Below, piece by piece: positions 12,308 through 64,000 of a stretch of DNA of 64,000 nucleotides. The notes under the pieces were generated by a model. It was not told the DNA's origin. It ran no database searches and was given only the letters and a program-made list of their open reading frames with translations. The stretch is from Bacteroidota bacterium (GTDB taxonomy: Bacteria > Bacteroidota > Ignavibacteria > Kapaibacteriales > DASPKH01). A program made the position numbers and the translations under genes. The first letter of the stretch is position 1. The number at the start of each line of letters is the position of its first letter. The stretch lies in the NCBI GenBank assembly GCA_040386315.1, contig JAZKFS010000017.1, forward strand, positions 19,251 to 83,250. Reading direction: 5' to 3'.

Positions 12308-12399
12308 AATTGATTTCAGGATAAAAATGGTTGGTGTTAGATTTACTTATTAACAGGTAATAATAATAGTATAATGCTTTTGTTACATTTTAAAACATC

Positions 12400-14079: not shown

Positions 14080-14175
14080 TTTTTACAAGGATTTTGTCTG
14101 AACTATGATTTTTAGGATTTGAGGATGTTAGGATTTTTCTTTTTAAAAACTTAACTGTCTGAAAATGAATTGGAG

Positions 14176-14289: not shown

Positions 14290-14300
14290 AATTTTTTAAA

Positions 14301-14430: not shown

Positions 14431-14519
14431 GCTTTTTATAACTGTATCTCGAACCGCAGCCCACGAAGCTCAAAAGCAACATCGCCATCACGAAAATTCG
14501 CATTACAGCACCTTTTAAA

Positions 14520-14568
14520 AAGGGCTTATCGCCATGCAGGTTTTGTATGTCGTGGGAGCAGTTGTTCA
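14520..14568 (-). repeat. Duplicated fragment of the 5' end of gene 12400..14079 (gene remnant)
   Basis: tcgccatgcaggttttgtatgtcgtgggagcagttgttcat matches 14036-14079 with 4 mismatches, i.e. a second copy of MNxCSHDIQNLHGD. Confidence 0.6.
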
Positions 14569-14580
14569 TTCTTTTAAAAA

Positions 14581-15042: not shown

Positions 15043-15093
15043 GGACTCCCTTTAAAATGGTAAATAGTTGGCTGCAAATTACTTTTTAAAAAG

Positions 15094-15777
15094 TTATTTT
15101 TCAAAACTAAATCCTTCAGTTTTTCCTTCGGTTTTCACAACCGCAAACCGCGCAAATAAGTCCTCGCTGTACCACGCTTCCTCGCGGGTGAGCCGTATGA
15201 CCTCGCGGTGCTTTGGCGACCTGTACGCGAAGTCCTTCACGCTTTCCTCGTCGTGCCAGAAGGAGAGTGTTGCCTGGCGGAAAAGGGGCGCTTCGCCGAT
15301 GCCGATGGAGGCAATTCGCCCGCGCGCTGCATCCAGTTCAGCGCTTGTCTCTGGAACGAACTGCCAGAAGCGCCTGAGCCGCTGCGGCCGTATCGTCGCG
15401 CGCGTGAGCACAGCAACCGGAGTTTTTAAAACGATATTCTTATCAGTTTTAAAAGGTGCAACGCCGTCCCATTTTCCGTGCGCCTGAAATGGCTGCAATT
15501 TCACCGTAAAATATTCATCGGAATGTTGTAAAAACTTTTTAAAAAGGGGAGAGCTTTTAAAAAACTCATCAGCGACAACTTCCGATTCCCACACACAGAG
15601 CAAACCGTAACGCGAGAAATCCGGGCGAATGCTAAAGCCATTGCCGCGCCCCGTGCCGAGCATTTTAAAAAACTCGAGCCCGCGCACCCTTTTTAAAAGC
15701 GGCGGCGCAAAGGCCATTTGCGAAAAAGCCCACGCCTTTTGAAAACCGGAATATGAGAAGAGTGTGAATGTGGTCAT
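15094..15777 (-). CDS. Hypothetical protein (227 aa), possibly a di-ABM/monooxygenase-like fold (speculative)
   Basis: ORF only; no firm motif. Confidence 0.4.
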   Translation of the reverse strand: MTTFTLFSYSGFQKAWAFSQMAFAPPLLKRVRGLEFFKMLGTGRGNGFSIRPDFSRYGLLCVWESEVVADEFFKSSPLFKKFLQHSDEYFTVKLQPFQAHGKWDGVAPFKTDKNIVLKTPVAVLTRATIRPQRLRRFWQFVPETSAELDAARGRIASIGIGEAPLFRQATLSFWHDEESVKDFAYRSPKHREVIRLTREEAWYSEDLFARFAVVKTEGKTEGFSFEK

Positions 15778-15835
15778 ACGTTTTTTAAAAACAAACGTAC
15801 GGAATTTTTGGGTGCGGTGATTTTAAAGAGGTTGT
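15716..15835. repeat. Direct repeat copy 1 (about 100 bp) flanking the WG-repeat gene
   Basis: cgaaaaagccca(c/t)(g/a)ccttttgaaaaccggaatat…gtggtcatacgttttttaaaaacaaacgtacggaat is repeated at 17951-18070. Confidence 0.7.
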
Positions 15836-15848
15836 TTTTTAATCTTCG

Positions 15849-17813
15849 TTAATTGTTATACGGATCCATTATTCCATTCGGGTAATATTGCTGCTGTCTC
15901 CAGAATTGACCGGGATTAATACTGCTTTCAAATTCGTTGCTGTACACGGTTATTTCCTTTTTATCTTTACTGACTTCTTTATCCGGGTTAGCGTATTGTA
16001 ATTCTATACGCAGTTTTGTCTTAAAATCTCCTTCATATACAGGTGTCAGGAATGTCCAGTAATAGTTGGGTTCAAGAGTTAATGTATGATAACTATTACC
16101 GCACCAGCTGCTTGGTAAATATTCAATGTCTTTCCATTCACCCTGTTTGTTTTTTGCCTGAACTTTCATGCTCAGCCGGCTGTCCTGAGCGTTAAAAAGA
16201 ACGTTGTTTTTTGATGTATTGGCAACAAATACTTTTCTTGCTTTAAATAAACTAATCGTATCCTCAGCTTCAGATGAAACAATTAGACTTAATGTATTTT
16301 CGGGGAAAGAGCTCGATTCGGAGATTTCAACCGGAATATTACGTGAATTTCCATGCCCGCCAAGGTCATTTTTATGCGGCTTGGAATACGCATAAAAATA
16401 CCCTCTGTTCATAAAATCTATATTGAGTTTTGAAATCTGTTTTGTTGTGTCAGGTGATTTTTGCCAGACTGTTTTTCCTTCAGTATTGATGTAGGATACC
16501 TTGTTGCCAATCATGCAACGCAATACTCCTTTATAAAAACCGGAAAAATCATATTGTTGCATTACAGGTTGAATTATAATGCTTCCGTCTTTTTTAGCCA
16601 TACCATATAATTTGTCATAATGGCTATTATTGTCAGGATTCCAATCGTAGAAATAGAAATAATCACCTGTCATTCCTCTTTCATCTATTCCTTCAAACCG
16701 GGGCTGGATAATAAAATTTTCATTCGTATCAATCAGCCCATATTTACCATTTTTTTTTACAAAAGCCACTCCATTATTAAATCTTTCACCGAGTACATAA
16801 GAATATACATTATCTGAAATGCGCTTCCCTTTAGTATCAATTATAAAGCGCTCATATTTTTCATTTCTGACAAATGCACGATTGTCAGAAAACTCTTCCG
16901 CATAGGTATAATTTGTATCATCAATTACAATCTCACCAGTGGTATTTATAAAGCCGCTATAGTTTTTAGTTGATGTAGAGAGCACACCCTTTTCTTCAGG
17001 TATCCAGTATTTGTAAAGGTTGATTTTTGCAAGTCCGGAGTGTAGATTACCTTCTATCCAGGTGTGGTTTTTGTGACTTTTTGCGAAAAGCAGTTTGCCC
17101 TGTTTATCAATAAATCCTGTTTGTTTAGTGCTGCCATCTTCTGTATCCCAGGATTCCGCTGGTATATCAACCCGGAAATAACCATTTTCAAAATCATAAA
17201 TATTTTCGTATTTCCCAAACGGAACAATGAACTGACCAAGCGTATCAATTATACCCGCCTCAAAGCTTGCAGGAGTTCCTTTTTTTGTATCAGCATAAGG
17301 ATGATGATTTGCTCCATATACGACAGCCAATCCATCATTAAACGGGTTAATTCTGGAAAAAACAGTATCAATGATAAGCGCACCTTTTTTATCAATATAT
17401 CCGACTTTCCCAGTTTCCGTGTATACTTTGGCCATCCCGTCAACAAAGCTTTCTATAAATGGAAAATCCGTTTCAAACTGCTTTTTGCCTTGTTTATTTA
17501 TAAAAAAAGGTTTACCCTCCAGATAGGCTAATGCCAAACCTTCGCTAAAATATGTTGCGTAGTCAAACTGCGGCTTGATAACGAAATTGCCCGTAGCATC
17601 AATAAATCCATACGTCCCATTAATCCTTGCGCTGGCAAGCCCTTCAGAAAATTCACCTGCACTCAAAAACACGGGCTTAATGACAACTTTGCCTGTTGAA
17701 TCAATAAACCCAATTTTCCCATTTTCAAAAATCTGGAAAAGCCTGATTTCGCTCGTCTGACTTTTACAAGTCGTAAAAATCATGGTGAATAATGCTATGA
17801 TGAGATATTTCAT
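15849..17813 (-). CDS. WG-repeat (KWG-type) containing protein, secreted
   Basis: Many repeats of GKxGFIDxxGxxVIxPxF…A..FSEGLA; signal peptide. Confidence 0.7.
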   Translation of the reverse strand: MKYLIIALFTMIFTTCKSQTSEIRLFQIFENGKIGFIDSTGKVVIKPVFLSAGEFSEGLASARINGTYGFIDATGNFVIKPQFDYATYFSEGLALAYLEGKPFFINKQGKKQFETDFPFIESFVDGMAKVYTETGKVGYIDKKGALIIDTVFSRINPFNDGLAVVYGANHHPYADTKKGTPASFEAGIIDTLGQFIVPFGKYENIYDFENGYFRVDIPAESWDTEDGSTKQTGFIDKQGKLLFAKSHKNHTWIEGNLHSGLAKINLYKYWIPEEKGVLSTSTKNYSGFINTTGEIVIDDTNYTYAEEFSDNRAFVRNEKYERFIIDTKGKRISDNVYSYVLGERFNNGVAFVKKNGKYGLIDTNENFIIQPRFEGIDERGMTGDYFYFYDWNPDNNSHYDKLYGMAKKDGSIIIQPVMQQYDFSGFYKGVLRCMIGNKVSYINTEGKTVWQKSPDTTKQISKLNIDFMNRGYFYAYSKPHKNDLGGHGNSRNIPVEISESSSFPENTLSLIVSSEAEDTISLFKARKVFVANTSKNNVLFNAQDSRLSMKVQAKNKQGEWKDIEYLPSSWCGNSYHTLTLEPNYYWTFLTPVYEGDFKTKLRIELQYANPDKEVSKDKKEITVYSNEFESSINPGQFWRQQQYYPNGIMDPYNN

Positions 17814-17950
17814 ATTTTGGGTAGATTTAGGAATTTTAAAAACAGAATTTCCTTGTCCTGATTTTATTAAATATAGAACGAAAATCCGTAATAAAAAATA
17901 TTCCTGACCAACAGAAAGTTGAATTCTTTTAAAACTTTAATGCTTTAAAG

Positions 17951-18070
17951 TACCTGCGAAAAAGCCCATACCTTTTGAAAACCGGAATATCGGAAGAGTG
18001 TGAATGTGGTCATACGTTTTTTAAAAACAAACGTACGGAATCTTTTGATAGGGTTAATTTAAAAAAAAAA
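17951..18070. repeat. Direct repeat copy 2 (duplicate of the 5' end and upstream region of gene 15094..15777)
   Basis: Near-identical to 15716-15835. Confidence 0.7.
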
Positions 18071-18124
18071 CCGTTTTTTAAAACTCCTGTTTTTAAAAAA
18101 TTCGCGACGCATTTCTTTTAAAAA

Positions 18125-18160
18125 CAAAAAAGGGATCTGTTTTTACAACAGATCCTTTTT
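18125..18160. terminator. Bidirectional terminator-like hairpin aaaaaagggatctgtt…aacagatcctttttt
   Basis: Perfect inverted repeat with A-run and T-run flanks, downstream of the multicopper oxidase gene. Confidence 0.6.
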
Positions 18161-18221
18161 TGTTTTAGTTTTTCTTTAGTATTCTACTCTCTCTCGTGCT
18201 TTTATTAAATTTTTTCAGCCG

Positions 18222-39612: not shown

Positions 39613-41091
39613 TTATTTTATCCTGGATATTTCACGTTTCACCTGTTTCTGCAAATATTCTTCCTGTTCAAAATCTTTAAAAGAAGCCGCCTTTTCAAAA
39701 CTTGAAAGTGCGGCTTCTTTATTGCCGCTTTTTACCTGAGCCAGGCCAAGTCTGTAATACGAAAACGGTGTCACCCAAACATCATCTTCCGGTTTTAAAA
39801 CCGTTGCTTTTAAAAACCTTTTTTCCGCTTCCGCAAAACTTCCTTTTTCAAAAAATGCTCGTCCGGCAATATATTCCAGCCGCGCTTTGATGTTATCCGG
39901 AAAATTACTTTTTAAAGGTTCATTTGTCGAAGAAATCGCTTCATCATAATCACCAGCACGAAAAAAATTATCCGCTTTTACAACTGCAATGTCACCCGAC
40001 GTCATCGGCTTTTTTAAAAGCTTTTTCACATCATCGCGTTCCGCTGCTTTTTGATAATAATTGACAGCGCCTACACGATTTCCCGAAATTTCCAGCATCA
40101 TGCCAAGCTGAATATTTGCCTCGCGGACGAGATTTACATTAGAATTATCAACTATCACCTTTTTTAAAAACTCTGACGATTCTGCATAATTATTTTTAAA
40201 AAAGTGTGCTACGCCAAGTCCGAAATTTGCCTGAACATTTAATTTCGCACGTTCCGGCTGCGGGATTTCATTTATAATGAGGAGAATTTTCTGCCCCTGC
40301 ATAATCGCCTCATCACTTTTTCTCATTTGAAAAAGCAGCAATTGCGCCAATTGAAGCCGAAACCAGCCATTTTTCGGAAACTGTGTGACAAGCGCACTTA
40401 AATGACTTTGCGCACGCGGAAAATTCTCCTCGCTCTGGTAAAAAGATGCCAGCCACGCACGCGCTTCAGGTTTGCTATAAATACCATTCGCAGCTGCAAA
40501 TTCCAACTGGCGCAAACCTTTCGCACGGTCGCCGGAAAGCCCTGCAAGCGAGAGAGCAGGTTTTAAAAAAGGGGGTGCTTGCGAGATCAAGTATTGAAAA
40601 AGCCCCAAACCCATTTTTGCATCAGCATTCGACGAATCTGCCTCAAGCGCATCTTCCAAAAAGCCAACAGCTTTTTTACCGTCAGAAACCGCATCGAGAT
40701 GTTTTTCAGCCTTATAATGTAAAAGTCCGCGATAGCCGAGAATTCCACCCATATAGAACATCGCGCGTGAGTCTTTCCCGTTATTTTTTAAAAGCTTCGC
40801 ACAAACCTGCTCGACCTGCTGCGATGTTTTTAAAAACGCTTTGTAATCCGCATCATCGCCCGCATTGCTAAAGCGTGTATAATACACCATCGCTTTATAG
40901 AAATACCCACGCGGCTCGCCCGGCGCTTGCTTTATTACGTCATTGCAGCCCGCTTCGGCTTCGGCGTAGCGCAGATTATACAGGTCGTCAATTGCCGCTG
41001 CCGTCGTTGAGTGGACTTTTGCCCAGTCAATCGTTTGTGCAACGGCGGGAGTTTTTAAAAGGAGAAATATGGCGAGAAGGAGGAATTTCAT
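39613..41091 (-). CDS. Secreted TPR-repeat protein
   Basis: Signal peptide; multiple TPR-like helices. Confidence 0.65.
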   Translation of the reverse strand: MKFLLLAIFLLLKTPAVAQTIDWAKVHSTTAAAIDDLYNLRYAEAEAGCNDVIKQAPGEPRGYFYKAMVYYTRFSNAGDDADYKAFLKTSQQVEQVCAKLLKNNGKDSRAMFYMGGILGYRGLLHYKAEKHLDAVSDGKKAVGFLEDALEADSSNADAKMGLGLFQYLISQAPPFLKPALSLAGLSGDRAKGLRQLEFAAANGIYSKPEARAWLASFYQSEENFPRAQSHLSALVTQFPKNGWFRLQLAQLLLFQMRKSDEAIMQGQKILLIINEIPQPERAKLNVQANFGLGVAHFFKNNYAESSEFLKKVIVDNSNVNLVREANIQLGMMLEISGNRVGAVNYYQKAAERDDVKKLLKKPMTSGDIAVVKADNFFRAGDYDEAISSTNEPLKSNFPDNIKARLEYIAGRAFFEKGSFAEAEKRFLKATVLKPEDDVWVTPFSYYRLGLAQVKSGNKEAALSSFEKAASFKDFEQEEYLQKQVKREISRIK

Positions 41092-50594: not shown

Positions 50595-51859
50595 ATGAAA
50601 CTCTGGCAAAAAGAAACGTCGGCTGCAAATGATTTCGCTGCAATAATCGAAGAATTCACCGTCGGGAAAGACCGAGAACTTGACCTTTTGCTTGCAGAAC
50701 ACGACGTGATTGGTTCACTCGCGCACACGCAAATGCTGGAGAGTATTGGCCTGCTGACAAGCGCAGAATTGACAGAAATCCACCGCGAACTGAACGCAAT
50801 TTTAAAAGAAATCCGTGCGGGAAATTTTAATTTATGCTCACGCAGCGCATCGGCGACGTGGGCAAAAAAATCCACAGCGGACGTTCGCGCAATGACCAGG
50901 TTTTACTTGATATAAAGCTGTTTTTGCGCGCCGCGCTTTTAAAAATGTCGCAGGAAATTAATGCACTGTTTTTAAAACTTTTGGAATTAAGCGAAGCGCA
51001 CAAAGACGCGCTGCTGCCGGGTTACACGCATTTCCAGATCGCAATGCCGTCGTCGTTTGGGCTGTGGTTTGGCGCGTATGCCGAGGGCCTGGTGGACGAT
51101 ATGGAATTCGTGCAGGCGGCGTATAATATATGCGACAAAAACCCGCTCGGTTCCGGCGCGGGCTACGGTTCGTCCTTCCCACTGAACCGCGAAATGACGA
51201 CGGAGCTGATGTCTTTTAAAAGCATGAATCACAACGTCGTGTATGCGCAAATGACGCGCGGCAAAAGCGAAAAATCCGTTGCCATGGCGCTCTCATCCGT
51301 TGCCGCGACGCTTTCAAAATTTGCGTACGACGTGTGCCTGTACATGAGCCAGAACTTCGGTTTTATCACGTTCCCAGACGAACTCACGACCGGCTCCAGC
51401 ATCATGCCGCACAAAAAAAATCCCGATGTTTTCGAGCTCATCCGCGCAAAATGCAACCGCATCCAGGCGCTGCCGAACGAGCTCACGCTGCTCATCAACA
51501 ACCTGCCCAGCGGCTACCACCGCGACATGCAGCTCACAAAAGAAATCCTCTTTCCCGCACTTGCCGATATGCACGCGTGCCTGCGCGTCGCCGAATTTAT
51601 GCTCCGCCACATAATCGTGAAAAATGACATCCTCAGCGACGAAAAATACGCGCATCTTTTCAGCGTCGAGCGCGTGAACGAGCTGGTTTTAAAAGGCACC
51701 CCATTCCGCGACGCCTACCGCATAGTTGGGCAGGAAATCGCCGACGGCACTTTTAAAACGCAACCCACCGTCAACCACACGCACACCGGCAGCATCGGTA
51801 ATTTGGGCAACGATCAGATCAAAAAATCAATGGAAAAATTCGCCCATCTCACAAAGTAA
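50595..51859 (+). pseudogene. argH: Argininosuccinate lyase disrupted by an internal deletion/frameshift (ORFs 50595..50915 and 50834..51859)
   Basis: N-terminal ORF matches the ArgH start (MKLWQKE…LAHTQMLESIGLL…). The second ORF carries GKKIHSGRSRNDQV and the fumarate-lyase signature (GSSIMPHKKNPD). About 12-14 residues expected before …LTQRIGDVG are missing and the frame shifts. Confidence 0.8.
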
Positions 51860-52280: not shown

Positions 52281-52862
52281 TTGGACACATCCTTACTTTT
52301 AAAAGAATTTCAAGCGCGCACGAATATCACAAGCGAAGAATTCGAGCAATATCTTGCGCTGTGCGAGCCGCGCCGTTTTAAAAAGAACGAGATAATAATG
52401 CAGGCGGGCGATATTCCGAAGTTCACACTTTTTGTTGTAAGCGGATGTCTGCGGCAATATTACGTGAGCGCGGAAGGCGTCGAGCGGATCATCTATTTTG
52501 CCGAGGAGCGCTGGTGGGCGGGCGACCTGCTGAGTATGCGCAATGGCACACCGACCGAACTCAACCTGCAAGCGCTCGAAGCCACCGACACGCTCACAAT
52601 CAGCAAAGAAAACTGGGAATACGCTTTTAAAAACTTCCCGTGGTACGCCGAGCTGCACATAAAAGGGCAGCAACGCTGGAACGGTAAAATGCAAAATCAA
52701 CTGGGACAATCGCTCGCCGACTCGCCGGAAACGAAATATCTCCGGCTTTTAAAAGAACGCCCGAAGTTGCTCCAACGCGTGCCGCAATACCACATCGCCA
52801 CGTATCTCGGCATCACTCCCGAAACGCTCAGCCGCATCCGCAAAAAGATTTCTTTAAAATGA
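52281..52862 (+). CDS. Crp/Fnr-family transcriptional regulator
   Basis: cNMP-binding beta-roll followed by a C-terminal HTH (VPQYHIATYLGITPETLSRIRKK). Confidence 0.8.
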   Translation: MDTSLLLKEFQARTNITSEEFEQYLALCEPRRFKKNEIIMQAGDIPKFTLFVVSGCLRQYYVSAEGVERIIYFAEERWWAGDLLSMRNGTPTELNLQALEATDTLTISKENWEYAFKNFPWYAELHIKGQQRWNGKMQNQLGQSLADSPETKYLRLLKERPKLLQRVPQYHIATYLGITPETLSRIRKKISLK

Positions 52863-53764: not shown

Positions 53765-55903
53765 ATGGCGAAAAAAAATGAAAAACCCGCAACTGATAAT
53801 AAGAAAGTTCGCGATTTGGCGGTCAATACTGAGGAGAGTTCAGGCGAATTCCTAACAACGAATCAGGGCGTGCGCATTAATGACAACCAGAATTCTTTAA
53901 AAGCTGGCGAGCGCGGCCCAACGCTGCTGGAAGATTTTATTTTCCGTGAGAAAATGACGCATTTCGACCACGAGCGTATTCCGGAGCGTATTGTTCATGC
54001 GCGTGGTGCGGCGGCGCACGGATTTTTCCAGGTGTATGAGTCTATGGCAAAATACACGAAAGCGGGATTTCTGCAAGACCCATCTTTAAAAACACCTGTT
54101 TTTGTGCGGTTCTCGACTGTTGCGGGTTCGCGCGGCTCAACTGATTTGGCTCGCGATGCGCGTGGTTTTGCTGTGAAATTTTATACCGAAGAAGGAAATT
54201 ATGATCTTGTGGGAAATAATATCCCGGTCTTTTTTATCCAGGATGCGATGAAATTTCCCGACCTTGTTCATGCTGTAAAACCCGAGCCGCATAATGAAAT
54301 TCCGCAGGCGGCGGCGGCGCACGATACATTCTGGGATTTTATTTCGCTTATGCCCGAGTCTATGCACATGATCTTCTGGGCGATGAGCGACCGTGCTATT
54401 CCGCGCAGCTACCGCATGATGGAGGGTTTTGGCGTTCACACGTTCCGATTCATCAATGAGGAAGGCAAAGGCCGTTTTGTAAAATTCCACTGGAAGCCGC
54501 TTTTGGGTGTGCATTCAGTCATGTGGGACGAAGCGACACGTATTTCCGGCAAAGACCCTGATTTCCACCGTCGCGACCTGTGGGAAGCAATTGAAAATGG
54601 CGATTTTCCTGAATATGAGCTGGGCGTGCAAATCGTGGAGGAAGATGACGAGCACAAGTTTGAATTCGACCTGCTCGACCCGACGAAAATCATTCCCGAA
54701 GAGCTCGTTCCTGTGCAGCGCATCGGCAAAATGACGCTGAATCGCAATCCGGACAACTTTTTTGCTGAAACTGAGCAGGTTGCATATCATCCCGGACACG
54801 TCGTTCCCGGTATTGATTTTACGAATGACCCGCTCTTGCAGGGACGGCTATTTTCCTATGTAGATACGCAGCTGAAGCGCCTCGGCGGGCCAAACTTCCA
54901 TGAAATTCCTATCAACCGTCCTGTAGCGCCAGTGCATAATAACCAGCGCGACGGCCACATGCGCCAGACAATCAATAAAGGCAAAACTGCATACGACCCG
55001 AACACAATTTCAAGCGGCTGCCCGTTCCAAGCGAAAGCGGCGCAGGGCGGTTTCGTGAGCCATACAGAACGAATTGACGCGCAGAAAATCCGTGCCCGTA
55101 GCGATAGTTTCCGCGACCATTTCAGCCAGGCGACGCTTTTTTATAACAGCCAAGCGGAACATGAAAAAAATCATATCGTAGACGCTTTTAGCTTTGAGCT
55201 AGGCAAGGTGGAATCTGTAGAAATCCGCCAGCGTATGATTGGATTAATTTCACAGGTGGATAAAGCCCTGGCGAAAAAAGTTGCGGATAAGCTCGGGCTG
55301 GATGTTTTAAAACCGGAAGAGCCAATGAACCGTTCATTCGGCGCCGATACCGACCCGAAATCTGTTCAGCCGGTAAAAGCAAAATCTTCGATTAAAGAAT
55401 CTGCCGCGTTGAGTATGGACAATACGAAAAAAGATTCCATCAAAACACGGAAAGTCGCTGCGCTGATCGCTGATGGCTTCAACGGCGACGAACTGAACGC
55501 AATGAAAAAAGCTTTAAAAGCAGAAGGCGCAATGCTGAAAACCGTTGCAACGCGGCTCGGCATGATAAAAAGCGCAAGCGGAGAAGAAGTAAAAGCCGAT
55601 TTTAGCTTTTTCACAACGGCTTCTGTTTTATTTGATGCAGTGTACGTGCCGGGCGGCGCTAAAAGCATCACGGCTTTAAAAGGCGAAGCCGACGCGTATC
55701 ATTTCGTTGACGAAGCTTTTAAACATTGCAAAGCGATCGCTGCAACAAGCGAAGGCGCAGACTTTATCGCTGATACATTTGCCGGAAAAGCAAAAGATGA
55801 TAAAGCGGTCATTATAGGAAAAAACATCGAAAAAGATTTTATAAAAGCAATTGCTCAGCATCGCAATTGGGAACGCGAAAAAGCGAGAAAAATCCCGGCG
55901 TAG
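53765..55903 (+). CDS. katE: Large-subunit catalase HPII with C-terminal DJ-1/PfpI-like domain
   Basis: FDHERIPERIVHARGAAAHGFF catalase signature, heme-pocket motifs, 712 aa. Confidence 0.9.
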   Translation: MAKKNEKPATDNKKVRDLAVNTEESSGEFLTTNQGVRINDNQNSLKAGERGPTLLEDFIFREKMTHFDHERIPERIVHARGAAAHGFFQVYESMAKYTKAGFLQDPSLKTPVFVRFSTVAGSRGSTDLARDARGFAVKFYTEEGNYDLVGNNIPVFFIQDAMKFPDLVHAVKPEPHNEIPQAAAAHDTFWDFISLMPESMHMIFWAMSDRAIPRSYRMMEGFGVHTFRFINEEGKGRFVKFHWKPLLGVHSVMWDEATRISGKDPDFHRRDLWEAIENGDFPEYELGVQIVEEDDEHKFEFDLLDPTKIIPEELVPVQRIGKMTLNRNPDNFFAETEQVAYHPGHVVPGIDFTNDPLLQGRLFSYVDTQLKRLGGPNFHEIPINRPVAPVHNNQRDGHMRQTINKGKTAYDPNTISSGCPFQAKAAQGGFVSHTERIDAQKIRARSDSFRDHFSQATLFYNSQAEHEKNHIVDAFSFELGKVESVEIRQRMIGLISQVDKALAKKVADKLGLDVLKPEEPMNRSFGADTDPKSVQPVKAKSSIKESAALSMDNTKKDSIKTRKVAALIADGFNGDELNAMKKALKAEGAMLKTVATRLGMIKSASGEEVKADFSFFTTASVLFDAVYVPGGAKSITALKGEADAYHFVDEAFKHCKAIAATSEGADFIADTFAGKAKDDKAVIIGKNIEKDFIKAIAQHRNWEREKARKIPA

Positions 55904-55926
55904 TTTTTAAAAGAAATTAGTTTTTA

Positions 55927-55965
55927 AAAAGGTCAGTCTTTTAAAAAAGGGCTGGCCTTTTTTGT
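55927..55965 (+). terminator. Terminator-like hairpin (aaggtcag…ctggcctt) plus T-run after katE
   Basis: 8-bp stem with one G·U pair, then ttttttgttttt. Confidence 0.5.
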
Positions 55966-56194
55966 TTTTAGAAGGTTCTAAGTAATCGCTTTTTTTGTAT
56001 TTACCCCGGATATATCTTCTGCATTTCTCGCATTCCTGCTAGATCTTCTCCCAAATCGCGATGTAAAAAACTATCTTCTTTTTTAAAAACTCATGAGTAT
56101 TTTTTGAGTAAGGTGAGCACGAAGTAATCCCTATACTTTTGCATGAAAGAAAGACGGCTTTTAAAACCTTTTTAAAAAGTAACGGAGAGAATGT

Positions 56195-57307
56195 ATGAAA
56201 AAGCAAATGTACAAACGCGGATTGGCAGGAGTGGCGATGTGGATAGTGCTTACCTTTGGAGTGCAGATTGTGTCGGCGAATACAGTGGAATATGCGCATG
56301 TTTTTGTGCCGGATAGAGCACATGGTGCTACGTATGACCGCACACGCTATGAGCAGACGTGGGGGAGTTTTACTGCCGTATATCCAAAGGATATTCCGGG
56401 ATACGGGATTGATCAGAACATAACAGACGGGCGGATTGTCTATAATGGAAATCGCTATCGTATGCCGTTTTTAAACGGATATGACCACGTTGTAGGAATT
56501 GCCGGGCACCTGACGGACATGCTGGACAGAGTAGAAATTGTAGTGAATGGAAATGTCGTTCGCACGATCCGTAAATCAGCACTGCTGTATAGCGGCGCTA
56601 CGAAGCGCGATCATCCGGAAACCCGCGAGCAGCAGAGAAAAGGGATGGTGGCTTTTAAGGTCAATAAAGCCGATCTGCCAAACCTGAACGAGGATTTTCA
56701 GATACGTATTCGCTTTGCAGTGGAGGTAGCGGGTTTTGACAAATTGGATTGCAAGGTCGTACACGGGAGCGGGCAGATTAAAAGTATGCACTGGACAACG
56801 TATAACGGAGCCGAGCTACCCGAAATCATTTCAAGGCCTAATAAATATAATGGATATAAAACCAACTGTAGTCCTAACCGCTTATATAATTTGCGCATGA
56901 TAATTATGAAAGCGCCGCAAAGTATACAGGTAGGAGATGGCATCAATAAAAAGATTCTGGAGCGTAATGTTACAAATTTCCGAAAAATTGAAGGAACGAG
57001 AATGATGGATACGGTTGATGTGACATTTACCGAGAAGTATGTCAGCATGGTTGAATCTGAAATGGGTGAAGATCCCGAAAGATTTGTACTGTTGTGTGAT
57101 GGCGAAGTGGGTAATATTCCCGGTGGATGGGGAAGCTATATTTATATGAGTATTGCTGATAATCTTTCCGGTTCTACCGGGCCGAATGGGTATCAGACAA
57201 ATTTGACAGGGCTTAATTTATGTGGCGAAGCTGGTGGAACAGTTGCCCCACCAAGACAGATACGAAGCAAAAATAACAATCTGGATTCAACAGGATGCGT
57301 ACCATAA
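56195..57307 (+). CDS. Hypothetical secreted protein (370 aa)
   Basis: Signal peptide; no recognisable domain. Confidence 0.5.
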   Translation: MKKQMYKRGLAGVAMWIVLTFGVQIVSANTVEYAHVFVPDRAHGATYDRTRYEQTWGSFTAVYPKDIPGYGIDQNITDGRIVYNGNRYRMPFLNGYDHVVGIAGHLTDMLDRVEIVVNGNVVRTIRKSALLYSGATKRDHPETREQQRKGMVAFKVNKADLPNLNEDFQIRIRFAVEVAGFDKLDCKVVHGSGQIKSMHWTTYNGAELPEIISRPNKYNGYKTNCSPNRLYNLRMIIMKAPQSIQVGDGINKKILERNVTNFRKIEGTRMMDTVDVTFTEKYVSMVESEMGEDPERFVLLCDGEVGNIPGGWGSYIYMSIADNLSGSTGPNGYQTNLTGLNLCGEAGGTVAPPRQIRSKNNNLDSTGCVP

Positions 57308-57387
57308 ATCTTAGATAAAAAAAACACTTTTCCGGATGCAATGATAATCACTTGTGTAAATTTTTAAAAACATAACAGGCCATCACC

Positions 57388-59496
57388 ATGAAATATATAT
57401 GTATCATCTTGCTGAGTTTCTTTGTGGCTCACTCCTCCTATGCGCAGCCAAAGGGCGAGTTTAAAAAGCTCTATAAAAACGGGCGTGTGTACCAGGAGTC
57501 GAAGAAGTTGCAGGTTTTAAAAGGGTTGGGTTTTACACTCAATACGTATTATGACAATGGCGAGATAATGCGCCAGGAAGAATGGGCAAATGGAAAGCGC
57601 AATGGCCTGACAAAAATATTTTTAAAAAACAACCAACTTGTAAAAGAAGCGCGTTTTCGTGATGATTACTTGCTGGAATACACAGCTTTTAAAAATAATC
57701 AACCCTACACCAAAATCAGCGCCGATCGCAGAACGATCATCAATAAAGGAAGACTAATTACTCCACGCTGGGATAAATATTATGAAATGCGGGGAAGCAA
57801 CCGCCTACTGGTATTCGACAAAAAGCAACTTGTTGACTGGATGAGTGGATGGATGATACCGGAAGAAGTGACTCAGATAATGGAAGATCTGGCTACTTAT
57901 TATGATTCGCAAACCAAAGCTGGTGGCGCTGATGATATGGTGACATGCGGAGGTAGTACAAGTATCATGAATGACCTGGGCGCTGATATGACAAGTCTGG
58001 GCAGCGGGGCAGGTTCCGGCAAGACTACGAGTAGAACCTCTATGGGTAGCAGCCAGCAGAATAATAAGAGAACAACCGCTCTTGAAGCTGTAGGAGCAAT
58101 TGCCAACACATGTGCAGGCACCTCCAAAGCCAACCTTGCAGGTGGCAGCGGCGGTATTGCCGGGATGAATGCTTCCCGAAACAAGAAAGTAAATAAAGCC
58201 CGTGCTACTATGGCAAATGCCATAGCAGAATGTCAAAGCGGCAATCGTGGTGGAAATGGTATGTTTGCGATGGATATAGGAGGCATATTTAAAGGTGCTG
58301 CCTTTGTCGAAGAAATGATATTAGCAGAAGCCGCTGAAGCTGGAACTATGGTAACGACTGCAGTTGAAGCTACTGAGGGAGCGGCTATCATTGATGCAAC
58401 CATTGTAGATGGCTTAGCAACCGGGGCAACAACTGAAACTGCTGCGGCAAGTGTAGCTCGCGGTGCAGCCGTAAATGCAGTTCGGGGTTTTATCCTGGCA
58501 GATGTAGCTGTTGCTGCTACCGGTGTAACGGTAGCAGCAGGAGTAGGCTGGGCAATTGGTACATGGTTCAATGAAACTGCTGCGGGTAAAGCTCTTACAG
58601 CTGCTATAGCCGAAGCGCAGGAGTCAGGTGACGCGGCACTTCAAAAAGCAATAGCTGATGCTGCTGCCGCTCAGGCAGCTGCGGAAGAAAAACGAGCAAA
58701 AGAAGAAAATGCAAAGAAGGAAGAAGACAAAAAGAAAGAAGACGATAAAACAAAAACCGGGGGCAGCACACCTAAGACTCCCTTGCCGGATGGCATTGGC
58801 TCCGGAGATCCATGCGAGCGGATGAAAGCTTTTAACAGATATTGTGAAAGCACAGACTGGAAAGACATGCGGTGTGAAAATTTTGTCAGGTTAGTCAACG
58901 GTTGTAAAGGTAATATTACGCAAATGTATGTAGCCGGTGACGGTAATGTCATGGACGTAGGCTGTCCGGGCGGGGGTACTGATCAGGAAAAGCGTGCACA
59001 GCAGGCGGCAATCGACTGTCAGAAAAGAGGAATGATCAGTCAGCCGGGAGGAGATGGCATTAGTCCATGCCGGTCAGGTAACATAGACCGGGCAATTCCC
59101 GGAGGGAATAATCCTTTAGTGACTGATCCTGTTCGTGGAGAGTTCAGCGATGCTTTTTCAAATACTGCTGTGAAAGTAATCTCAGCTAATGAACTCGGAG
59201 CTGCTTTAAATTCAGCGAAACCTACAATGATCGTATTTATGGACCCTGATTGCTCATCATGCAAGGACTTCAACCGTACTTTAAAAGACCCTTCAATGGC
59301 GGCTTCATATGCCGGAATGGACGTGCGTGTTGTTGATGCGTCTCAATCTCCTGACCTGCTCCAGCAGTATAATATCCAATATTTCCCATCATATTTTGTG
59401 GCAAAAAGCGGAAAGAAAACTGACATGTCCATCGGTGCCATGAAGCCTGCTGACCTGAAAAAGTTCATGACAGATAATACCAATGGAATGAAATAA
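57388..59496 (+). CDS. Hypothetical secreted multi-domain protein (N-terminal YwqK/MORN-like repeats, central Ala/Gly/Thr-rich low-complexity region, Cys-rich segment, C-terminal thioredoxin-like CxxC domain)
   Basis: Signal peptide; YYDNGEIMRQEEWANGKRNG repeats; …MIVFMDPDCSSCKDF… CxxC about 90 aa from the C-terminus. Confidence 0.5.
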   Translation: MKYICIILLSFFVAHSSYAQPKGEFKKLYKNGRVYQESKKLQVLKGLGFTLNTYYDNGEIMRQEEWANGKRNGLTKIFLKNNQLVKEARFRDDYLLEYTAFKNNQPYTKISADRRTIINKGRLITPRWDKYYEMRGSNRLLVFDKKQLVDWMSGWMIPEEVTQIMEDLATYYDSQTKAGGADDMVTCGGSTSIMNDLGADMTSLGSGAGSGKTTSRTSMGSSQQNNKRTTALEAVGAIANTCAGTSKANLAGGSGGIAGMNASRNKKVNKARATMANAIAECQSGNRGGNGMFAMDIGGIFKGAAFVEEMILAEAAEAGTMVTTAVEATEGAAIIDATIVDGLATGATTETAAASVARGAAVNAVRGFILADVAVAATGVTVAAGVGWAIGTWFNETAAGKALTAAIAEAQESGDAALQKAIADAAAAQAAAEEKRAKEENAKKEEDKKKEDDKTKTGGSTPKTPLPDGIGSGDPCERMKAFNRYCESTDWKDMRCENFVRLVNGCKGNITQMYVAGDGNVMDVGCPGGGTDQEKRAQQAAIDCQKRGMISQPGGDGISPCRSGNIDRAIPGGNNPLVTDPVRGEFSDAFSNTAVKVISANELGAALNSAKPTMIVFMDPDCSSCKDFNRTLKDPSMAASYAGMDVRVVDASQSPDLLQQYNIQYFPSYFVAKSGKKTDMSIGAMKPADLKKFMTDNTNGMK

Positions 59497-59535
59497 TTTT
59501 TTAAAGAAATTCTTTTAAAAACCCTTTAAAAAATT

Positions 59536-62178
59536 ATGTGCAGATTCACTTTCTTTTTAAAAACAATCATCTGTTTCTGGTGTACAATGATGTACTCCGC
59601 CGCATTTGCACAGACTGATGCGCCCGCGCTTGCACCTATTCTCATCGGCCCATACGACGGCTCGGACGTCGTAGAGCAGCAGGTGATCTGGACGTGGTTT
59701 ATGCAGTCCAAAGCAGGCGGCGCAGATATTTTCTGTGACCTCGTCGTTGCTGAAATTTTAAGCGGACAAACACCAGAGGAAGCGCTGCGGCAAAATCCTC
59801 CGGTGATCCTGCGGAAAAATCTCACAACATCTGCCTGGCAGACGGGTTTTAACGCGCGTGAACTGCATGACGGAAGTAAATATGCCTGGCAGGTAATTGC
59901 AAAAGTAAAACGTGACGGTGCAGCAACAGCCGAACGCATTGTAAGCACAAGTGAGATATGGACATTTCTCTATCAGGCGCCGAAAGAAATCGTTGAGGAA
60001 AAGCCGGAACCTCCGCAATCTTTCATCGCAGATACAGCGCTTCCGCCGTCATCTGCGGCGGGTGAGGAATCGCATCCTGACGCTTTATCAACAAATCCGC
60101 TTACGGATACAGTTACTGTTGAAAATCGTGATACGGCAATTACTTCTGATAATTCTGCTTTTGCTTTTGATGGAGCAGCACGATTAACGCTGGAACATTC
60201 TAATCAAAGGCCGATTTTAGCCGCAAGTCCGCCGAATTTTGCACGCTGGCAGATCGATCCTACGATCAAGTTGTTTGGATCGCCATTGCGCTTAAATTTT
60301 CTTTTGTCAACAGAATCGCTCGCCGGGCAGCAGGCGGAAGAGCGTAATCTGCTCAGTCGCGGCGCTATCGGCAGTCAGAATGTTCGGAGCGGACTAAATC
60401 TTGCATTGCGACAGCAACTGGATGAAGAAATCAATCGTTTGGAAAGCAAACGCGATTCTGCTTCGATTGATACATTGCGAACATTTTCACTCTCAGATTC
60501 ACTGGCCATTGCTTCGCGTTTGAATGAATTGTATGAATTTCAAAACACTGATCTTAGTCAGAATATGGAAGCGCTTCAGCAGTTCGGGCTGGCTTCTGAA
60601 GAGCAAAAAGTATTGTCTGATTTTCCTGCATTCGGTTTTGGTAATGTCGCGCCGCGCTTTGGTAAATTGCTTTTAAATAATGTCACTGTGAACGGTGGAT
60701 TTGTTGAGTATAATCCTTCCAGTTTATATGTGGCAGGTTCTATCGGCAAAGTGCAGCGACTGGCGGACATCAGCAATGTTTCGCAGGATGTGATCGAATC
60801 TGATTCGTTGCTTTTTAAAAATCAAACTTTATCACAGTTTGAATTATTCAGGAATCTTTATTCCATGCGCGTAGGCTTTGGAAAAGTGAATAGCGATCAT
60901 ATTATTCTCACGGGTTTATACGCTGAAGACGATGAGCAGAGCGTGGCTTTGCAAAATACCGTCAATAGAATTCGAATTGACACCGCACTTGTCGTTCTAG
61001 ACAGTTTGGGCGAAATAATTGATTTGCGTGATTCCACATTTTTCCGGCAGAATACGATTATTTCAAAGCAAAAAAACTACGGTATTGGAGCTGTCGCACA
61101 TTACGAACCGCCAATTGAAAACCTGACTCTTGACGGTGAAGCAAACCTGATGTATTTTGAAGATAAAGGAAATTTTGACGTTTTAAAAAGAATTGAGCCG
61201 GTGAAAAATCTTCCTGATTTCCTGCGAAAAGGTGAAAGTGATAGCACAATTACCGATTACAGTTTTGCCGCAAAAGCTATTTACACACCTTTTAAAAAAA
61301 CTGCAAATTTCTCTACGGGAATCCGCTACGTTGGCGGCGGCTACCGTTCGGTGGGAACGGCGGGACTTCGCACAGATGCACTGCGCTGGGACGGGCTTTA
61401 TACGCAGACTTTTTTTAAAAAGCAGTTTCGGTTATCTGTAAATTCATCGCTTGATCAATCGGGTTTTAAAGACCTTGTGAATTCTTCGGATATTCTTTCA
61501 ACCGGTGCAGGAATTGATGTCAGAATTCCTCAATTTCCAGCATTCCATCTCGGCTATCAACGTCACGCACAGTCGTTAAAAACAAATAAAAATGTCACCG
61601 AATTAAAAAGCGAAGTAGATAATGCGATAGATAATGTCACGACGAATCTTACCTATTTATGGGGCAGCAATTTCGCACGAATGTCCAGCTTTGCTTCGTA
61701 CAATTTTCAAAACGGTTCATCGAATTCAGCAGATGAACAAAGCAAGCCGGATTCGGTTGGAATATTTACTTCTCAGGCAGTTCTGCTGAGTCAGCAAATT
61801 AGTTTCGGCCCGCAGATCAGTTTGGGAATTACCGGTAACTACACAAAAACGCGTTCATTTCCTTTAAAAGAATTTAAAATTATTAATCCTGATGATTCCA
61901 CTGATTTTACAGCAGGAACACGCCACGCTGAGGAAACTGCCGAAGTTTCAGGCTTTGGTGTTTCGGTTATTACCAATCCTTTCTCCTGGATAGAATCTTC
62001 CGTTGGCGCGACGTATTTTGATCTGGGGATTAATAGCTCATTTGCATTTCACAGCAATACAACACTACGCTTTTTAAAAGATTTTTCCACAGATATCCAG
62101 CTTTCGTACAGGCGGTTGCCCGGCGTGAAAATACCGGAGGAAATTGTTGCAAGAATTGTGAATAATTATACGTGGTGA
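59536..62178 (+). CDS. Large hypothetical secreted or outer-membrane protein (880 aa), possible beta-barrel
   Basis: Signal peptide; Ser/Asn/Thr-rich alternating pattern; C-terminal aromatic residue (…NNYTW). Confidence 0.45.
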   Translation: MCRFTFFLKTIICFWCTMMYSAAFAQTDAPALAPILIGPYDGSDVVEQQVIWTWFMQSKAGGADIFCDLVVAEILSGQTPEEALRQNPPVILRKNLTTSAWQTGFNARELHDGSKYAWQVIAKVKRDGAATAERIVSTSEIWTFLYQAPKEIVEEKPEPPQSFIADTALPPSSAAGEESHPDALSTNPLTDTVTVENRDTAITSDNSAFAFDGAARLTLEHSNQRPILAASPPNFARWQIDPTIKLFGSPLRLNFLLSTESLAGQQAEERNLLSRGAIGSQNVRSGLNLALRQQLDEEINRLESKRDSASIDTLRTFSLSDSLAIASRLNELYEFQNTDLSQNMEALQQFGLASEEQKVLSDFPAFGFGNVAPRFGKLLLNNVTVNGGFVEYNPSSLYVAGSIGKVQRLADISNVSQDVIESDSLLFKNQTLSQFELFRNLYSMRVGFGKVNSDHIILTGLYAEDDEQSVALQNTVNRIRIDTALVVLDSLGEIIDLRDSTFFRQNTIISKQKNYGIGAVAHYEPPIENLTLDGEANLMYFEDKGNFDVLKRIEPVKNLPDFLRKGESDSTITDYSFAAKAIYTPFKKTANFSTGIRYVGGGYRSVGTAGLRTDALRWDGLYTQTFFKKQFRLSVNSSLDQSGFKDLVNSSDILSTGAGIDVRIPQFPAFHLGYQRHAQSLKTNKNVTELKSEVDNAIDNVTTNLTYLWGSNFARMSSFASYNFQNGSSNSADEQSKPDSVGIFTSQAVLLSQQISFGPQISLGITGNYTKTRSFPLKEFKIINPDDSTDFTAGTRHAEETAEVSGFGVSVITNPFSWIESSVGATYFDLGINSSFAFHSNTTLRFLKDFSTDIQLSYRRLPGVKIPEEIVARIVNNYTW

Positions 62179-62278
62179 TAAAGACTGGAATTCTTTTTAA
62201 AAGCCGTAGTTTTAAAAGATTTTATTCATGCTTTTTTAAAAGTATTTATAGAGAGGTTCTTCTGTGCCGGACGTCAAT

Positions 62279-64000
62279 ATGCAGGCAAAAATCAGGCAAT
62301 TAGAAAAGCAAATTGAAAAAGCAAAAAACAATGATGAAAAAGTTTTGCTGCTGCTTTCCATGAGCGCTTTGGTGAAACGCTCCGATGTTCGCCTTGCAGA
62401 AGAAAAAGGATATGAGGCGCTTGAGATTGCAAGGCGTAGCGATAATCTGCATAATCTTGGTAGAGCATTATATTTTCTGGCAGATATAAATAATAATGTA
62501 AAAACGGATACTGAAAAAGCGCTGGAATTGGCCCTGGAAGCGATGGAATATTTTTTAAAAGCTAACGACAATAGCTACATTAGCCGTACGCTGGGGATGA
62601 TAGGCCGTATTTACACGAATCGCTCGGAATTTTTAAAAGCGCATGAATATCTTTTAAAAGGCCTTGAAATTGCTATTGTCTCCGGCGATGCAGATTGTAT
62701 CCATACGGCTCATAATAGGCTTGGCATGTATTACCATCACCACGGTGAATACGATGCGGCGATCCGCGAGCAGGAGTTCGCACTTCAGGCAGCCAGATCA
62801 ATGAATAATATACCTGTCATGGCCTCTGTTTTAAACAATCTTTCGCTTTCATATCTCGATGGTGGTAATTATGCACAGGCGTATAAATATGCTGCTGAAA
62901 GCCTCCTGATGCGGCAAAACACAGATGATATTACAGGCATTTCTAATTGCCATATAGCTCTTGCGCTTGTCCTTATACGTTTTAATGATTATGAAAAAGC
63001 ACTTGAGCATTTGTACAAAGCGTTGGCGCTCCGGCGCGGAATAGCTGATAATGCGCTAACTGCCCGGATTCTTTTTTATATCGGTGGTATATATTTTGAT
63101 CGCGCCCAATTCCGTCCGGCACTGGAAGAATTCCTGAAGTCAAAGGAATTACTTGATGGCTTTCACCATCCGATCACGGAATTAAATACTCTGCTCTATA
63201 TCGGTGCATCCAAGTCTGAACTTGGTGATGTACACGGAGGCATAAAAGATATAGAACACGCATATCGCAAACTAACAGAGCTTCAGGATATTAAATATAT
63301 TTCTCAGGCATGTTGCCATTTTGCCGCAGTATATAGAAAAGCCGGTGAAAATAACACTTCATTGTTTTATGGATTGAAAGGAATACGTGCCGGCTACGCA
63401 TCAAATTTTAAAGAAGCTCTTATAAAAAATTATCTTGAATTAGCTATTACCTACAATCAAAACAATCAGTTTTTAAAAGCGCAGAAAGCTGCTTCAAAAG
63501 CTGCCGCAATAGCCGAAGAATGTAATAATAAAGAACTTCTGCCAAAAGCTTTTAAAATCCTGGCTGAATCATATTTGCAGGGTAACGATTTTCAGAAATC
63601 CGTGAATTTTTATAAACGGTATGTAGAAGCAAAGGAAGAGTTTGTAAATGACTGTACAAACCACAAAATTCAAACGCTTCTTGTTGAATTCGATGTAGAG
63701 CAAATGAAGCACGAAGCAGAAATAAACAAACTGAAATCAGAACAATACGAGCGGGAGCTTGCTTTGAAAAATAAGGAATTAACAACATTAGCGTTGCACC
63801 TTGTCAACAAAAACGAGTTTTTAAAAACAATCGGCGACCAGATCTCCGAAGATGTTTCCAATACAAGTCAGATTATTAAAAATCTTTCAAAACTTGTAGA
63901 AAACGACGCAAACACAGAAGCCGAATGGAAGCTTTTTGAAAAGCAGTTTATACAGGTAAATCCTGATTTTACCACACGTCTTGCTGAAACATCAGGCGAA
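62279..64000 (+). CDS. TPR-repeat regulator (probably C-terminal LuxR-type HTH); 3' end beyond the window
   Basis: Repeated …LNNLS…Y..A… TPR units, a coiled coil, then …TLALHLVNKNEFLKTIGDQI…FEKQFIQVNPDFTTRLAE…, typical of Bacteroidetes TPR/HTH regulators; no stop before 64000. Confidence 0.6.
   Translation, partial: MQAKIRQLEKQIEKAKNNDEKVLLLLSMSALVKRSDVRLAEEKGYEALEIARRSDNLHNLGRALYFLADINNNVKTDTEKALELALEAMEYFLKANDNSYISRTLGMIGRIYTNRSEFLKAHEYLLKGLEIAIVSGDADCIHTAHNRLGMYYHHHGEYDAAIREQEFALQAARSMNNIPVMASVLNNLSLSYLDGGNYAQAYKYAAESLLMRQNTDDITGISNCHIALALVLIRFNDYEKALEHLYKALALRRGIADNALTARILFYIGGIYFDRAQFRPALEEFLKSKELLDGFHHPITELNTLLYIGASKSELGDVHGGIKDIEHAYRKLTELQDIKYISQACCHFAAVYRKAGENNTSLFYGLKGIRAGYASNFKEALIKNYLELAITYNQNNQFLKAQKAASKAAAIAEECNNKELLPKAFKILAESYLQGNDFQKSVNFYKRYVEAKEEFVNDCTNHKIQTLLVEFDVEQMKHEAEINKLKSEQYERELALKNKELTTLALHLVNKNEFLKTIGDQISEDVSNTSQIIKNLSKLVENDANTEAEWKLFEKQFIQVNPDFTTRLAETSGE

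Follow-up and report, generated by a model that had tools for sequence, protein, structure and literature searches.

A large predicted outer-membrane barrel protein with a conserved promoter signature, a TPR/LuxR-type regulator, and a variable gene slot in a Kapaibacteriales genome

Here we describe a block of genes in a 64,000-nucleotide stretch of DNA (GCA_040386315.1, contig JAZKFS010000017.1, positions 19,251 to 83,250; hereafter the window) from a Bacteroidota bacterium of the order Kapaibacteriales. Toward the end of the window three open reading frames (ORFs), which we call P1 (56195..57307, 370 aa), P2 (57388..59496, 702 aa), and P3 (59536..62178, 880 aa), follow one another on the plus strand, and the 5' part of a TPR/LuxR-type regulator gene (62279..64000, 573 codons, with an alternative start at 62264) lies behind them on the same strand. 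Comparison with related loci indicates that the conserved core of this locus consists of P3, the regulator, and a promoter signature, while P1 and P2 occupy a swappable slot. P3 itself is predicted to be a large outer-membrane beta-barrel protein of no recognisable family.

The initial annotation, made from the sequence alone, had proposed three co-directional ORFs separated by 80 bp (P1-P2) and 39 bp (P2-P3), and both the coordinates and the gaps hold; P3 and the regulator gene are 85-100 bp apart. The Logan assembly of run SRR26324626 (L015 among the related loci that we retrieved) agrees with window positions 54929-61156 with 0 mismatches. Because this independent assembly matches the window base for base, the gene order P1-P2-P3 is not an assembly artefact. 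Upstream of the block lie an arginine-biosynthesis cluster, a Crp-family regulator, and the gene for catalase HPII, which is followed on the plus strand by a strong intrinsic-terminator-like hairpin (55926..55962) with a 17-pair stem and a subsequent T run. This terminator closes the catalase gene, and the block is therefore a separate unit. A terminator scan found no convincing terminator between the genes of the block. P1, P2, and P3 constitute one transcription unit, which starts at a conserved promoter near 56095 and probably continues from P3 into the regulator gene. The earlier view of a single co-directional unit thus stands, while its proposed start at 56195 does not: the terminator at 55926-55962 and the promoter element at 56095-56141 place the start at about 56095.

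The signal peptides that had been claimed for all three proteins are supported. Signal-peptide-like N-termini can be read directly, with predicted cleavage sites between VSA and NT in P1, SYA and QP in P2, and AFA and QT in P3, and the same pattern is present in the orthologues of each protein. Scans with PADLOC and PHROGs returned generic TPR and thioredoxin matches alone and gave no sign of a defence function or a phage origin.

P3, a predicted barrel with a fused Fn3-like module

The AlphaFold2 (AF2) model of P3, built from an 18-sequence alignment with a predicted local distance difference test score (pLDDT) of 66.5, begins with a signal helix, after which come a beta-sandwich, a disordered linker, and the barrel. 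The N-domain (residues ~28-148, 59617..59979, plus strand) is predicted to be an Fn3/Ig-like beta-sandwich, with modelled strands between residues 35 and 146 and dense invariant alignment columns, and it is the best conserved part of P3 orthologues. A Pro/Ser/Glu-rich linker (residues ~150-206, 59983..60153, plus strand) follows, for which low pLDDT (21-30) and gappy, unconserved columns point to disorder; its length differs between orthologues. The remainder of the protein (residues ~209-880, 60160..62175, plus strand) is modelled as a beta-barrel, for which DSSP lists ~28-30 strands; residues 283-361 form a helical insert, and pLDDT is 75-90 in the C-terminal half. The last residue is W, and an aromatic residue (W, F, or Y) is also C-terminal in 128 of 162 family representatives (79%). 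When the model was compared with the Protein Data Bank (PDB) using Foldseek, outer-membrane barrels were matched exclusively, at template modelling (TM) scores of 0.15-0.44. MtrB was the top match (E 1.2e-07, TMt 0.41), and BtuB, FimD, PapC, TonB-dependent transporters, FadL, Occ porins, LptD, and SlpA were among the others. Signal peptide, predicted all-beta barrel, and C-terminal aromatic residue are all consistent with an outer-membrane barrel, and the prediction of an aromatic-ended barrel made for the 880-aa protein is thereby borne out at the level of a model.

P3 falls into no described family. At E<=0.1 it hits nothing in Pfam, NCBIfam, PADLOC, or PHROGs. Neither P3 nor 17 homologues matched Pfam or NCBIfam at E<=0.1-1 in a way that would give a consistent family, and a PDB sequence search with the P3 profile had a best E of 1.6; the profile of the N-domain module likewise returned nothing meaningful. 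A word-indexed search retrieved 17 relatives that are 34-69% identical to P3, all annotated as "hypothetical" and all from metagenome-assembled genomes (MAGs) of Kapabacteria, Ignavibacteria, or Bacteroidota. A HMMER profile search over cluster representatives extended this set to 1,625 sequences at E<=1e-3, 475 at E<=1e-10, and 137 at E<=1e-30. Ten distant barrel homologues contained no Pfam domain, and 20 members carried no informative name. A 153-sequence alignment displays motifs kept across the family, such as E-x-NPG-x-FY and GPGY-x-S-x-G-x-P-LR-x-D. The P3 family is thus a sizeable outer-membrane protein family for which no domain database holds a model, and all members for which a source was checked derive from MAGs or metagenomes. 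A literature search on the Kapabacteria outer membrane and on cytolysin-like proteins and lipases in Bacteroidetes found nothing relevant. The suggestion that the system is undescribed agrees with these results: P1 and P3 are without family, P3 has no sequence relative in the PDB, and the homologues that were looked up are all "hypothetical."

How did such a protein arise? In a metagenome scan, 24 distinct loci were retrieved by virtue of the N-domain only, and 13 of them also encode a barrel-only member of the family (560-790 aa), adjoining or one gene off; the remaining loci are mostly short contigs. At these split loci the N-domain forms the second half of a two-domain module that heads a separate signal-peptide protein. 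This protein measures 265-400 aa in its short version and 1,588 to >3,000 aa in its giant version, the latter with CarboxypepD_reg/Ig-like repeats. Profile comparison of the P3 N-domain with the partner module by hhalign gave a probability of 99.8% (E 5e-28). Weak matches of the module in 22 sequences were to Ig_Rha78A_N (14), fn3 (4), and DUF928 (6, all below threshold), from which the partner module is classed as Fn3/Ig-like. The related MAG GCA_020850315.1 holds two split forms. In one locus (L053) the gene for a 601-aa module protein stands before that for a 674-aa barrel; in the other (L054, JADZEY010000138.1) a 560-aa barrel precedes a 3,400-aa protein (8001-18203) with seven tandem copies of the N-domain. 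A divergent TPR regulator also lies before the 3,400-aa gene, and the gene behind it encodes a 720-aa protein found again at further split loci. By these comparisons P3 is a fusion of a barrel and an Fn3-like secreted partner, which are encoded by neighbouring genes in many other genomes. The fusion of neighbouring genes is classical evidence for physical cooperation of two proteins. Since barrel and module are fused in P3 and neighbours in the split loci, we infer that they work together physically, and the fusion/split pattern argues that they are obligate partners.

Promoter signature, regulator, and variable slot

The 240 bp upstream of P1 align with the equivalent regions of the two closest relatives, L001 and L006, and the three have in common an invariant 18-nt element, AGTATTTTTTGAGTAAGG (56096-56113, plus strand), followed by TAnnTTTG. 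The core of this element is a direct repeat, GAGTA-N6-GAGTA (56095..56110, plus strand). The second sequence, TACTTTTG (56134..56141, plus strand), lies some 54 nt before the P1 start codon and corresponds to the Bacteroidota-type -7 promoter box (TAnnTTTG), a reading that we take from what is established for Bacteroidota sigma-A promoters. From the start of the repeat to the start of the -7-type box is exactly 39 nt, a spacing kept in seven loci. AGTATTTTTTGAGTAAGG is invariant across the three genomes despite an identity of only 64-70% between the flanking proteins. The window contains one exact site and a single further one at up to 3 mismatches (39842-39859, minus strand, with 3), and among the retrieved loci the element is present solely upstream of P1 in the window, L001, and L006.

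Equivalent arrangements precede unrelated first genes elsewhere: GAGTA...GAGTA in L005 (TAGTTTCG), AAGTA...GCGTA in L003 (TATATTTG), and ACGTA...ACGTA in L013 and L010 (TAAGTTCG). We searched for the composite pattern nnGTA-N6-nnGTA-N23-TAnnTT[TC]G on both strands of 1.16 Mb of non-redundant related DNA. It occurred seven times, always on the coding strand and always upstream of the first gene of a P3-type operon, whichever gene that is, so that the background in this DNA is zero. All seven loci that have a co-directional regulator and visible upstream DNA carry the pattern, and none of the five P3-clade loci without a co-directional regulator does. The predicted recognition helix of the regulator covaries with the half-sites: TVENHRY is paired with GAGTA (L001, L005, L006), TIDTHRH with ACGTA (L010, L013), and TIEGHRL with AAGTA/GCGTA (L003). 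On the strength of this sequence conservation and co-occurrence, the direct repeat is a candidate operator of the TPR/LuxR regulator, whose binding to it we infer.

The visible part of the regulator contains six stretches of TPR_12 (Pfam, E 1.7e-26), as expected for the class of regulators that combine a TPR sensor with a LuxR/GerE domain. Its orthologues, 24-40% identical over the visible 573 residues and directly 3' of P3 in nine distinct loci, possess a GerE/LuxR helix-turn-helix (HTH) at residues ~578-628. Weak TPR_MalT and SusR_C matches were also recorded for the regulator. The window ORF is cut at 64000, just before the HTH, and its last visible residues align with the pre-HTH segment of L006. 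The initial annotation of a TPR regulator with a C-terminal HTH behind P3 is accordingly right in position and in the TPR part, while the HTH lies outside the window and is seen in orthologues only. In L003 the regulator is tandem-duplicated after the P3 homologue (12683-14593 and 14801-16798), and the last 150 residues are identical between the copies.

Which genes travel with P3? We compared the neighbourhoods of ~20 distinct loci of the fused type. The regulator follows P3 on the same strand in nine (the window, L001, L003, L005, L006, L010, L012, L013, and L020) and lies close by on the opposite strand in L008 and L009. A same-strand gene is found at most 190 bp upstream of P3 in 16 of 17 P3-clade loci, and its identity varies. 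P1-type genes stand directly before P3 in the window, L001/L002, and L006/L021, that is, besides the window, in two other distinct genomes (four loci), which are the closest relatives. A fourth P1 homologue is on a contig of 5,167 bp, as is one P3 homologue. The slot otherwise holds fusions of a class-3 lipase (Lipase_3) with a ricin-B lectin (L003, L010, L012, L013), GDSL-like proteins recognised by weak matches (L003, L017, L019, L020, L026), Thiol_cytolysin proteins (L012, 2-1678, E 1e-15; L017, 12329-14146, E 5e-15), a Vitellogenin_N-like protein (L008, L023; E 1e-8), or proteins that we could not assign (L005, L009, L018). Compared with its closest relatives, the window shows two differences: P1 is without the CARDB domain, and P2 stands between P1 and P3. 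P2 is absent from all of the ~20 other distinct P3 loci. The conservation of a four-gene neighbourhood across Bacteroidota, for which a check had been suggested, is contradicted by these data, as P2 is nowhere else beside P3, P1 accompanies it only in the closest relatives, and the slot is filled by other proteins. Of the notion that the block is an operon for one assembly, the co-directional unit with a dedicated regulator survives and the conserved four-part machine does not.

Cholesterol-dependent cytolysins (Thiol_cytolysin) are sterol-binding toxins. The occurrence of cytolysin-like proteins beside lipases in P3-type operons (L012, L017) is unexpected for free-living Kapabacteria-like bacteria and hints at an attack on sterol-containing membranes. 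Unrelated neighbouring genes in L003, L005, and L053 carry Por_Secre_tail, from which it follows that the lineage has type 9 secretion. No type 9 secretion tail was found in P1, P2, P3, or the other slot proteins scanned, and none of P1, P2, and P3 matched a PorV, PorP/SprF, or SprA profile in the Pfam and NCBIfam scans.

P1 matches no Pfam, NCBIfam, PADLOC, or PHROG family at E<=0.1, and just nine homologues were found among 5.8 billion clusters. Most of these are ~500 aa long, with a Gly-rich linker that joins the P1 core to a CARDB-type domain at the C-terminus; CARDB (PF07705) was detected in homologues P0181 and P0186. The window protein ends at the Gly-rich linker, and no CARDB match or remnant is detectable in the window. 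By this comparison P1 is a truncated form of the ~500-aa family whose window copy has lost the CARDB domain. The mature N-terminus, (A)NTVE[FY] (residues 29-34, 56279-56296), is invariant in nine of nine homologues and forms the first predicted strand; exposed and strictly conserved, this strand could serve strand complementation or recognition. The AF2 model is of low confidence (pLDDT 50.6), with a beta-sandwich core at residues 70-190, and generic tandem Ig domains are its sole Foldseek matches. P1 is thus probably an exported Ig-like or beta-sandwich protein and the first slot gene. We also considered P1 as a split-off partner module of P3 and rejected this, as hhalign gave a probability of 0.3-0.5%.

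P2 consists of a MORN-like N-terminal region, a stretch of 23% Ala, 13% Gly, and 10% Thr, one hydrophobic segment, a Lys/Glu-rich stretch, a region with seven conserved cysteines, and a C-terminal thioredoxin fold. The thioredoxin domain (residues 597-695, 59176..59472, plus strand) matches PF00085 with E 2.7e-09 and 37.4 bits against a cutoff of 23.5, over profile positions 4-102 of 103. In a BLASTP alignment its CSSC motif (residues 622-625, nt 59251-59262) falls opposite the CGPC of E. coli TrxA. Profile match and CxxC motif place the P2 C-terminus in the thioredoxin superfamily, and redox activity is predicted. The description of P2 as a multidomain protein with a redox-type domain is therefore sound, with a real thioredoxin fold and a CxxC at the canonical position. 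Of the three proteins, for none of which a recognisable enzymatic family had been noted, P1 and P3 have no family match, and P2 has a thioredoxin domain that scores above the Pfam threshold. The hydrophobic segment (residues 364-391, 58477..58560, plus strand; Kyte-Doolittle maximum 1.96 over 19 residues) is glycine-zipper-like, is conserved in four of four homologues, and is possibly membrane-inserting. Only four P2 homologues were found, and only two of them contain the thioredoxin domain; the nearest that is not identical (52% identity) has a response-regulator gene on one side and a VWA gene on the other. Speculatively, the thioredoxin domain of P2 may handle the disulfides of cysteine-containing exported proteins; alternatively, and equally as speculation, P2 might be a membrane-active slot protein, marked by its glycine-zipper-like segment.

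Possible functions of P3 and its neighbours

The split relatives recall two-partner secretion (type Vb). In these relatives, the gene of a ~560-630-aa barrel adjoins that of a secreted repeat protein, which is often giant (1,600 to >3,400 aa). The usual order is barrel and then partner, and a conserved ~290-aa N-terminal module of the partner is all that the systems have in common. However, the P3-family barrel is without POTRA, ShlB, or Bac_surface_Ag, and the partner is without TPS or Haemagg_act; ~28-30 strands are predicted instead of 16, and P3 has the module fused and no passenger. P3 differs from the Omp85/TpsB transporters in giving no POTRA, Bac_surface_Ag, or ShlB match and in its Fn3-like N-domain. 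The chaperone-usher proteins FimD and PapC, at Foldseek ranks 3 and 7 (E ~1e-06), likewise combine an N-terminal beta-sandwich on a linker with a large barrel, and P1 would be an Ig-like exported neighbour. The TM scores are low, however (0.2-0.35); the locus lacks a chaperone gene, P3 is predicted to have neither a plug nor C-terminal domains, and Usher, PapC_N, and PapC_C gave no match, which sets P3 apart from the fimbrial ushers.

LptD and MtrB are barrels of 26 strands that function only with a partner protein in the lumen. P3 resembles the LptD-LptE and MtrB-MtrA pairs in that its barrel is very large and is matched by both in Foldseek, but there is no sequence relationship and there are no cytochrome or lipopolysaccharide-transport genes near P3. 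No MtrB/PioB, LptD, autotransporter, or Slam (DUF560) profile of Pfam or NCBIfam matched P3. The order of signal peptide, N-terminal folded domain, flexible linker, and C-terminal barrel is that of autotransporters (type Va), and a barrel gene beside variable cargo genes is reminiscent of Slam/type 11 systems; unlike either, P3 has no PF03797 or DUF560, its barrel is more than twice as large, and its "passenger" would be a single ~120-aa domain. P3 gave no Plug or TonB_dep_Rec match either, and its Foldseek TM scores with TonB-dependent transporters are only 0.15-0.32. The regulator, finally, resembles MalT-type LuxR activators in its TPR sensor half, in the C-terminal GerE/LuxR HTH of its orthologues, and in the candidate direct-repeat site. 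At MalT-dependent promoters the MalT boxes form a direct repeat just upstream of the core promoter. The regulator differs in having no STAND/AAA ATPase, receiver, or autoinducer domain, and the half-site sequence is another one.

What, then, could P3 do? Tentatively, we read the barrel as a regulated pore in the outer membrane through which slot proteins would exit or by which they would be anchored. The regulator would sense a signal through its TPR half, and its LuxR-type HTH would bind the direct repeat, which overlaps the -33 region, and activate the operon as MalT does. Slot proteins would cross the inner membrane via Sec, and the P3 barrel would act as their dedicated outer-membrane exit or anchor. 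The tethered Fn3-like domain would be a docking or plug element, a role taken by the free partner in split systems, where the barrel would serve giant module-bearing proteins. More doubtful is the wider proposal that barrel and module represent a new export or anchoring system of the Bacteroidota-Ignavibacteria-Kapabacteria group, independent of type 9 secretion and analogous, not related, to two-partner secretion. A dedicated TPR/LuxR switch would control the export of giant Ig-repeat adhesins by its split form and of lipases, cytolysins, or Ig-like proteins by its fused form.

Several observations weigh against a regulated exit or anchoring pore. The P3 model is of only moderate quality, and the N-domain may sit within the lumen of the barrel, in the periplasm, or at the cell surface. 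The structural likeness to known translocons is generic (TM 0.2-0.4) and indicates an outer-membrane barrel, nothing more specific. By eye, no N- or C-terminal targeting motif shared among slot proteins was found, and P1 is unrelated to the N-domain module according to hhalign. L008, L009, L011, L017, and L018 have neither a co-directional regulator nor the motif, and the putative operator is assigned from co-occurrence and from three classes of covariation. All family members with a checked source are from MAGs or metagenomes.

Might P3 instead import? In an uptake locus resembling the polysaccharide utilisation loci of Bacteroidota, P3 would take up hydrophobic or lipid-derived products freed by the co-encoded secreted proteins, and the regulator would be triggered by the substrate. 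A barrel with variable enzymes and a dedicated regulator (with its weak SusR_C match) is indeed what such loci look like, the Foldseek matches include FadL, Occ, and TonB-dependent importers, and the slot genes elsewhere share a lipid theme (Lipase_3 with ricin lectin, GDSL-like, Thiol_cytolysin, Vitellogenin_N-like). Yet P3 shows no TonB box, Plug domain, or FadL/Toluene_X signature, a barrel of ~28-30 strands is far bigger than known lipid importers, and the slot genes of the window (Ig-like P1, MORN/thioredoxin P2) are not lipid enzymes. The pairing of barrels with giant Ig-repeat proteins in split relatives is a better fit to display or secretion, and we consider uptake unlikely.

We hold it to be somewhat less likely still that P3 is a structural or tethering outer-membrane protein, or a general porin, whose N-domain reaches into the periplasm on its flexible linker and whose slot genes share its promoter and not its function. 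An N-domain, a long linker, and a very large C-terminal barrel follow one another as in SlpA/OmpM-type proteins, SlpA is itself among the Foldseek matches, and the N-domain is the best conserved part, as expected if it bound an invariant cell component. But this domain is Fn3-like and neither SLH nor OmpA-like, and a housekeeping protein does not normally stand behind a dedicated TPR/LuxR-controlled promoter with a variable toxin or enzyme slot; the family is also patchy, with several copies in different contexts per genome (L007 and L009; L053 and L054). An obligate assembly of P1, P2, P3, and the regulator would account for the tight co-directional spacing, the signal peptides on all three proteins, and the position of P1 before P3 in the closest relatives. 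It is highly improbable given that P2 is missing from the other fused-type loci and has its nearest homologue among unrelated genes, that P1 directly precedes P3 in so few genomes and lacks CARDB in the window, and that other loci replace P1 and P2 by unrelated proteins.

If barrel and module do serve to export or anchor proteins, an extra secretion route would be open to a large group of environmental bacteria, and it would explain how signal-peptide proteins without a type 9 tail, such as lipases and cytolysin-like toxins, leave the cell. From the fusion/split relationship one would expect barrel and Fn3-like module to interact physically. The regulator-operator pair offers a readable specificity code (GAGTA with VENHRY, ACGTA with IDTHRH), and new secreted effectors might well be sought in the variable slot.

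Other observations in the window and related genomes

The palindromic octamer TTTTAAAA occurs in 276 copies in the 64 kb of the window (4.3 per kb) versus 11.7 +/- 3.2 expected. Copies cluster between genes, for example at 55905, 55922, 55939, 56081, 56159, 56170, 62195, 62210, and 62234. The two closest relatives, L001 and L006, have 2.5 and 3.0 per kb, and distant Kapabacteria-like loci of similar GC content have 0-0.2. By these counts, the octamer is a lineage-specific, highly iterated palindrome.

L006 (DASPKH010000206.1) is labelled "Patescibacteria group bacterium." Its operon of P1, P3, and the regulator is 64-67% identical to that of the window, and the locus also encodes outer-membrane proteins and shows enrichment of TTTTAAAA. 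The label looks wrong, and we have a similar doubt over the "Armatimonadetes" label of GCA_020850315.1.

Upstream of the block, argH is apparently split into two overlapping ORFs in different frames: 50595-50915 (106 aa, ArgH profile positions 22-74) and 50834-51859 (341 aa, profile positions 89-392 of 455). This could reflect a frameshift, a pseudogene, or a sequencing error. A Crp/Fnr-family regulator gene (52281-52862) lies ~900 bp 5' of the large-subunit catalase gene (53765-55903), with two small unassigned ORFs in between; the catalase is of the HPII type and has a DJ-1/PfpI-like C-terminal domain.

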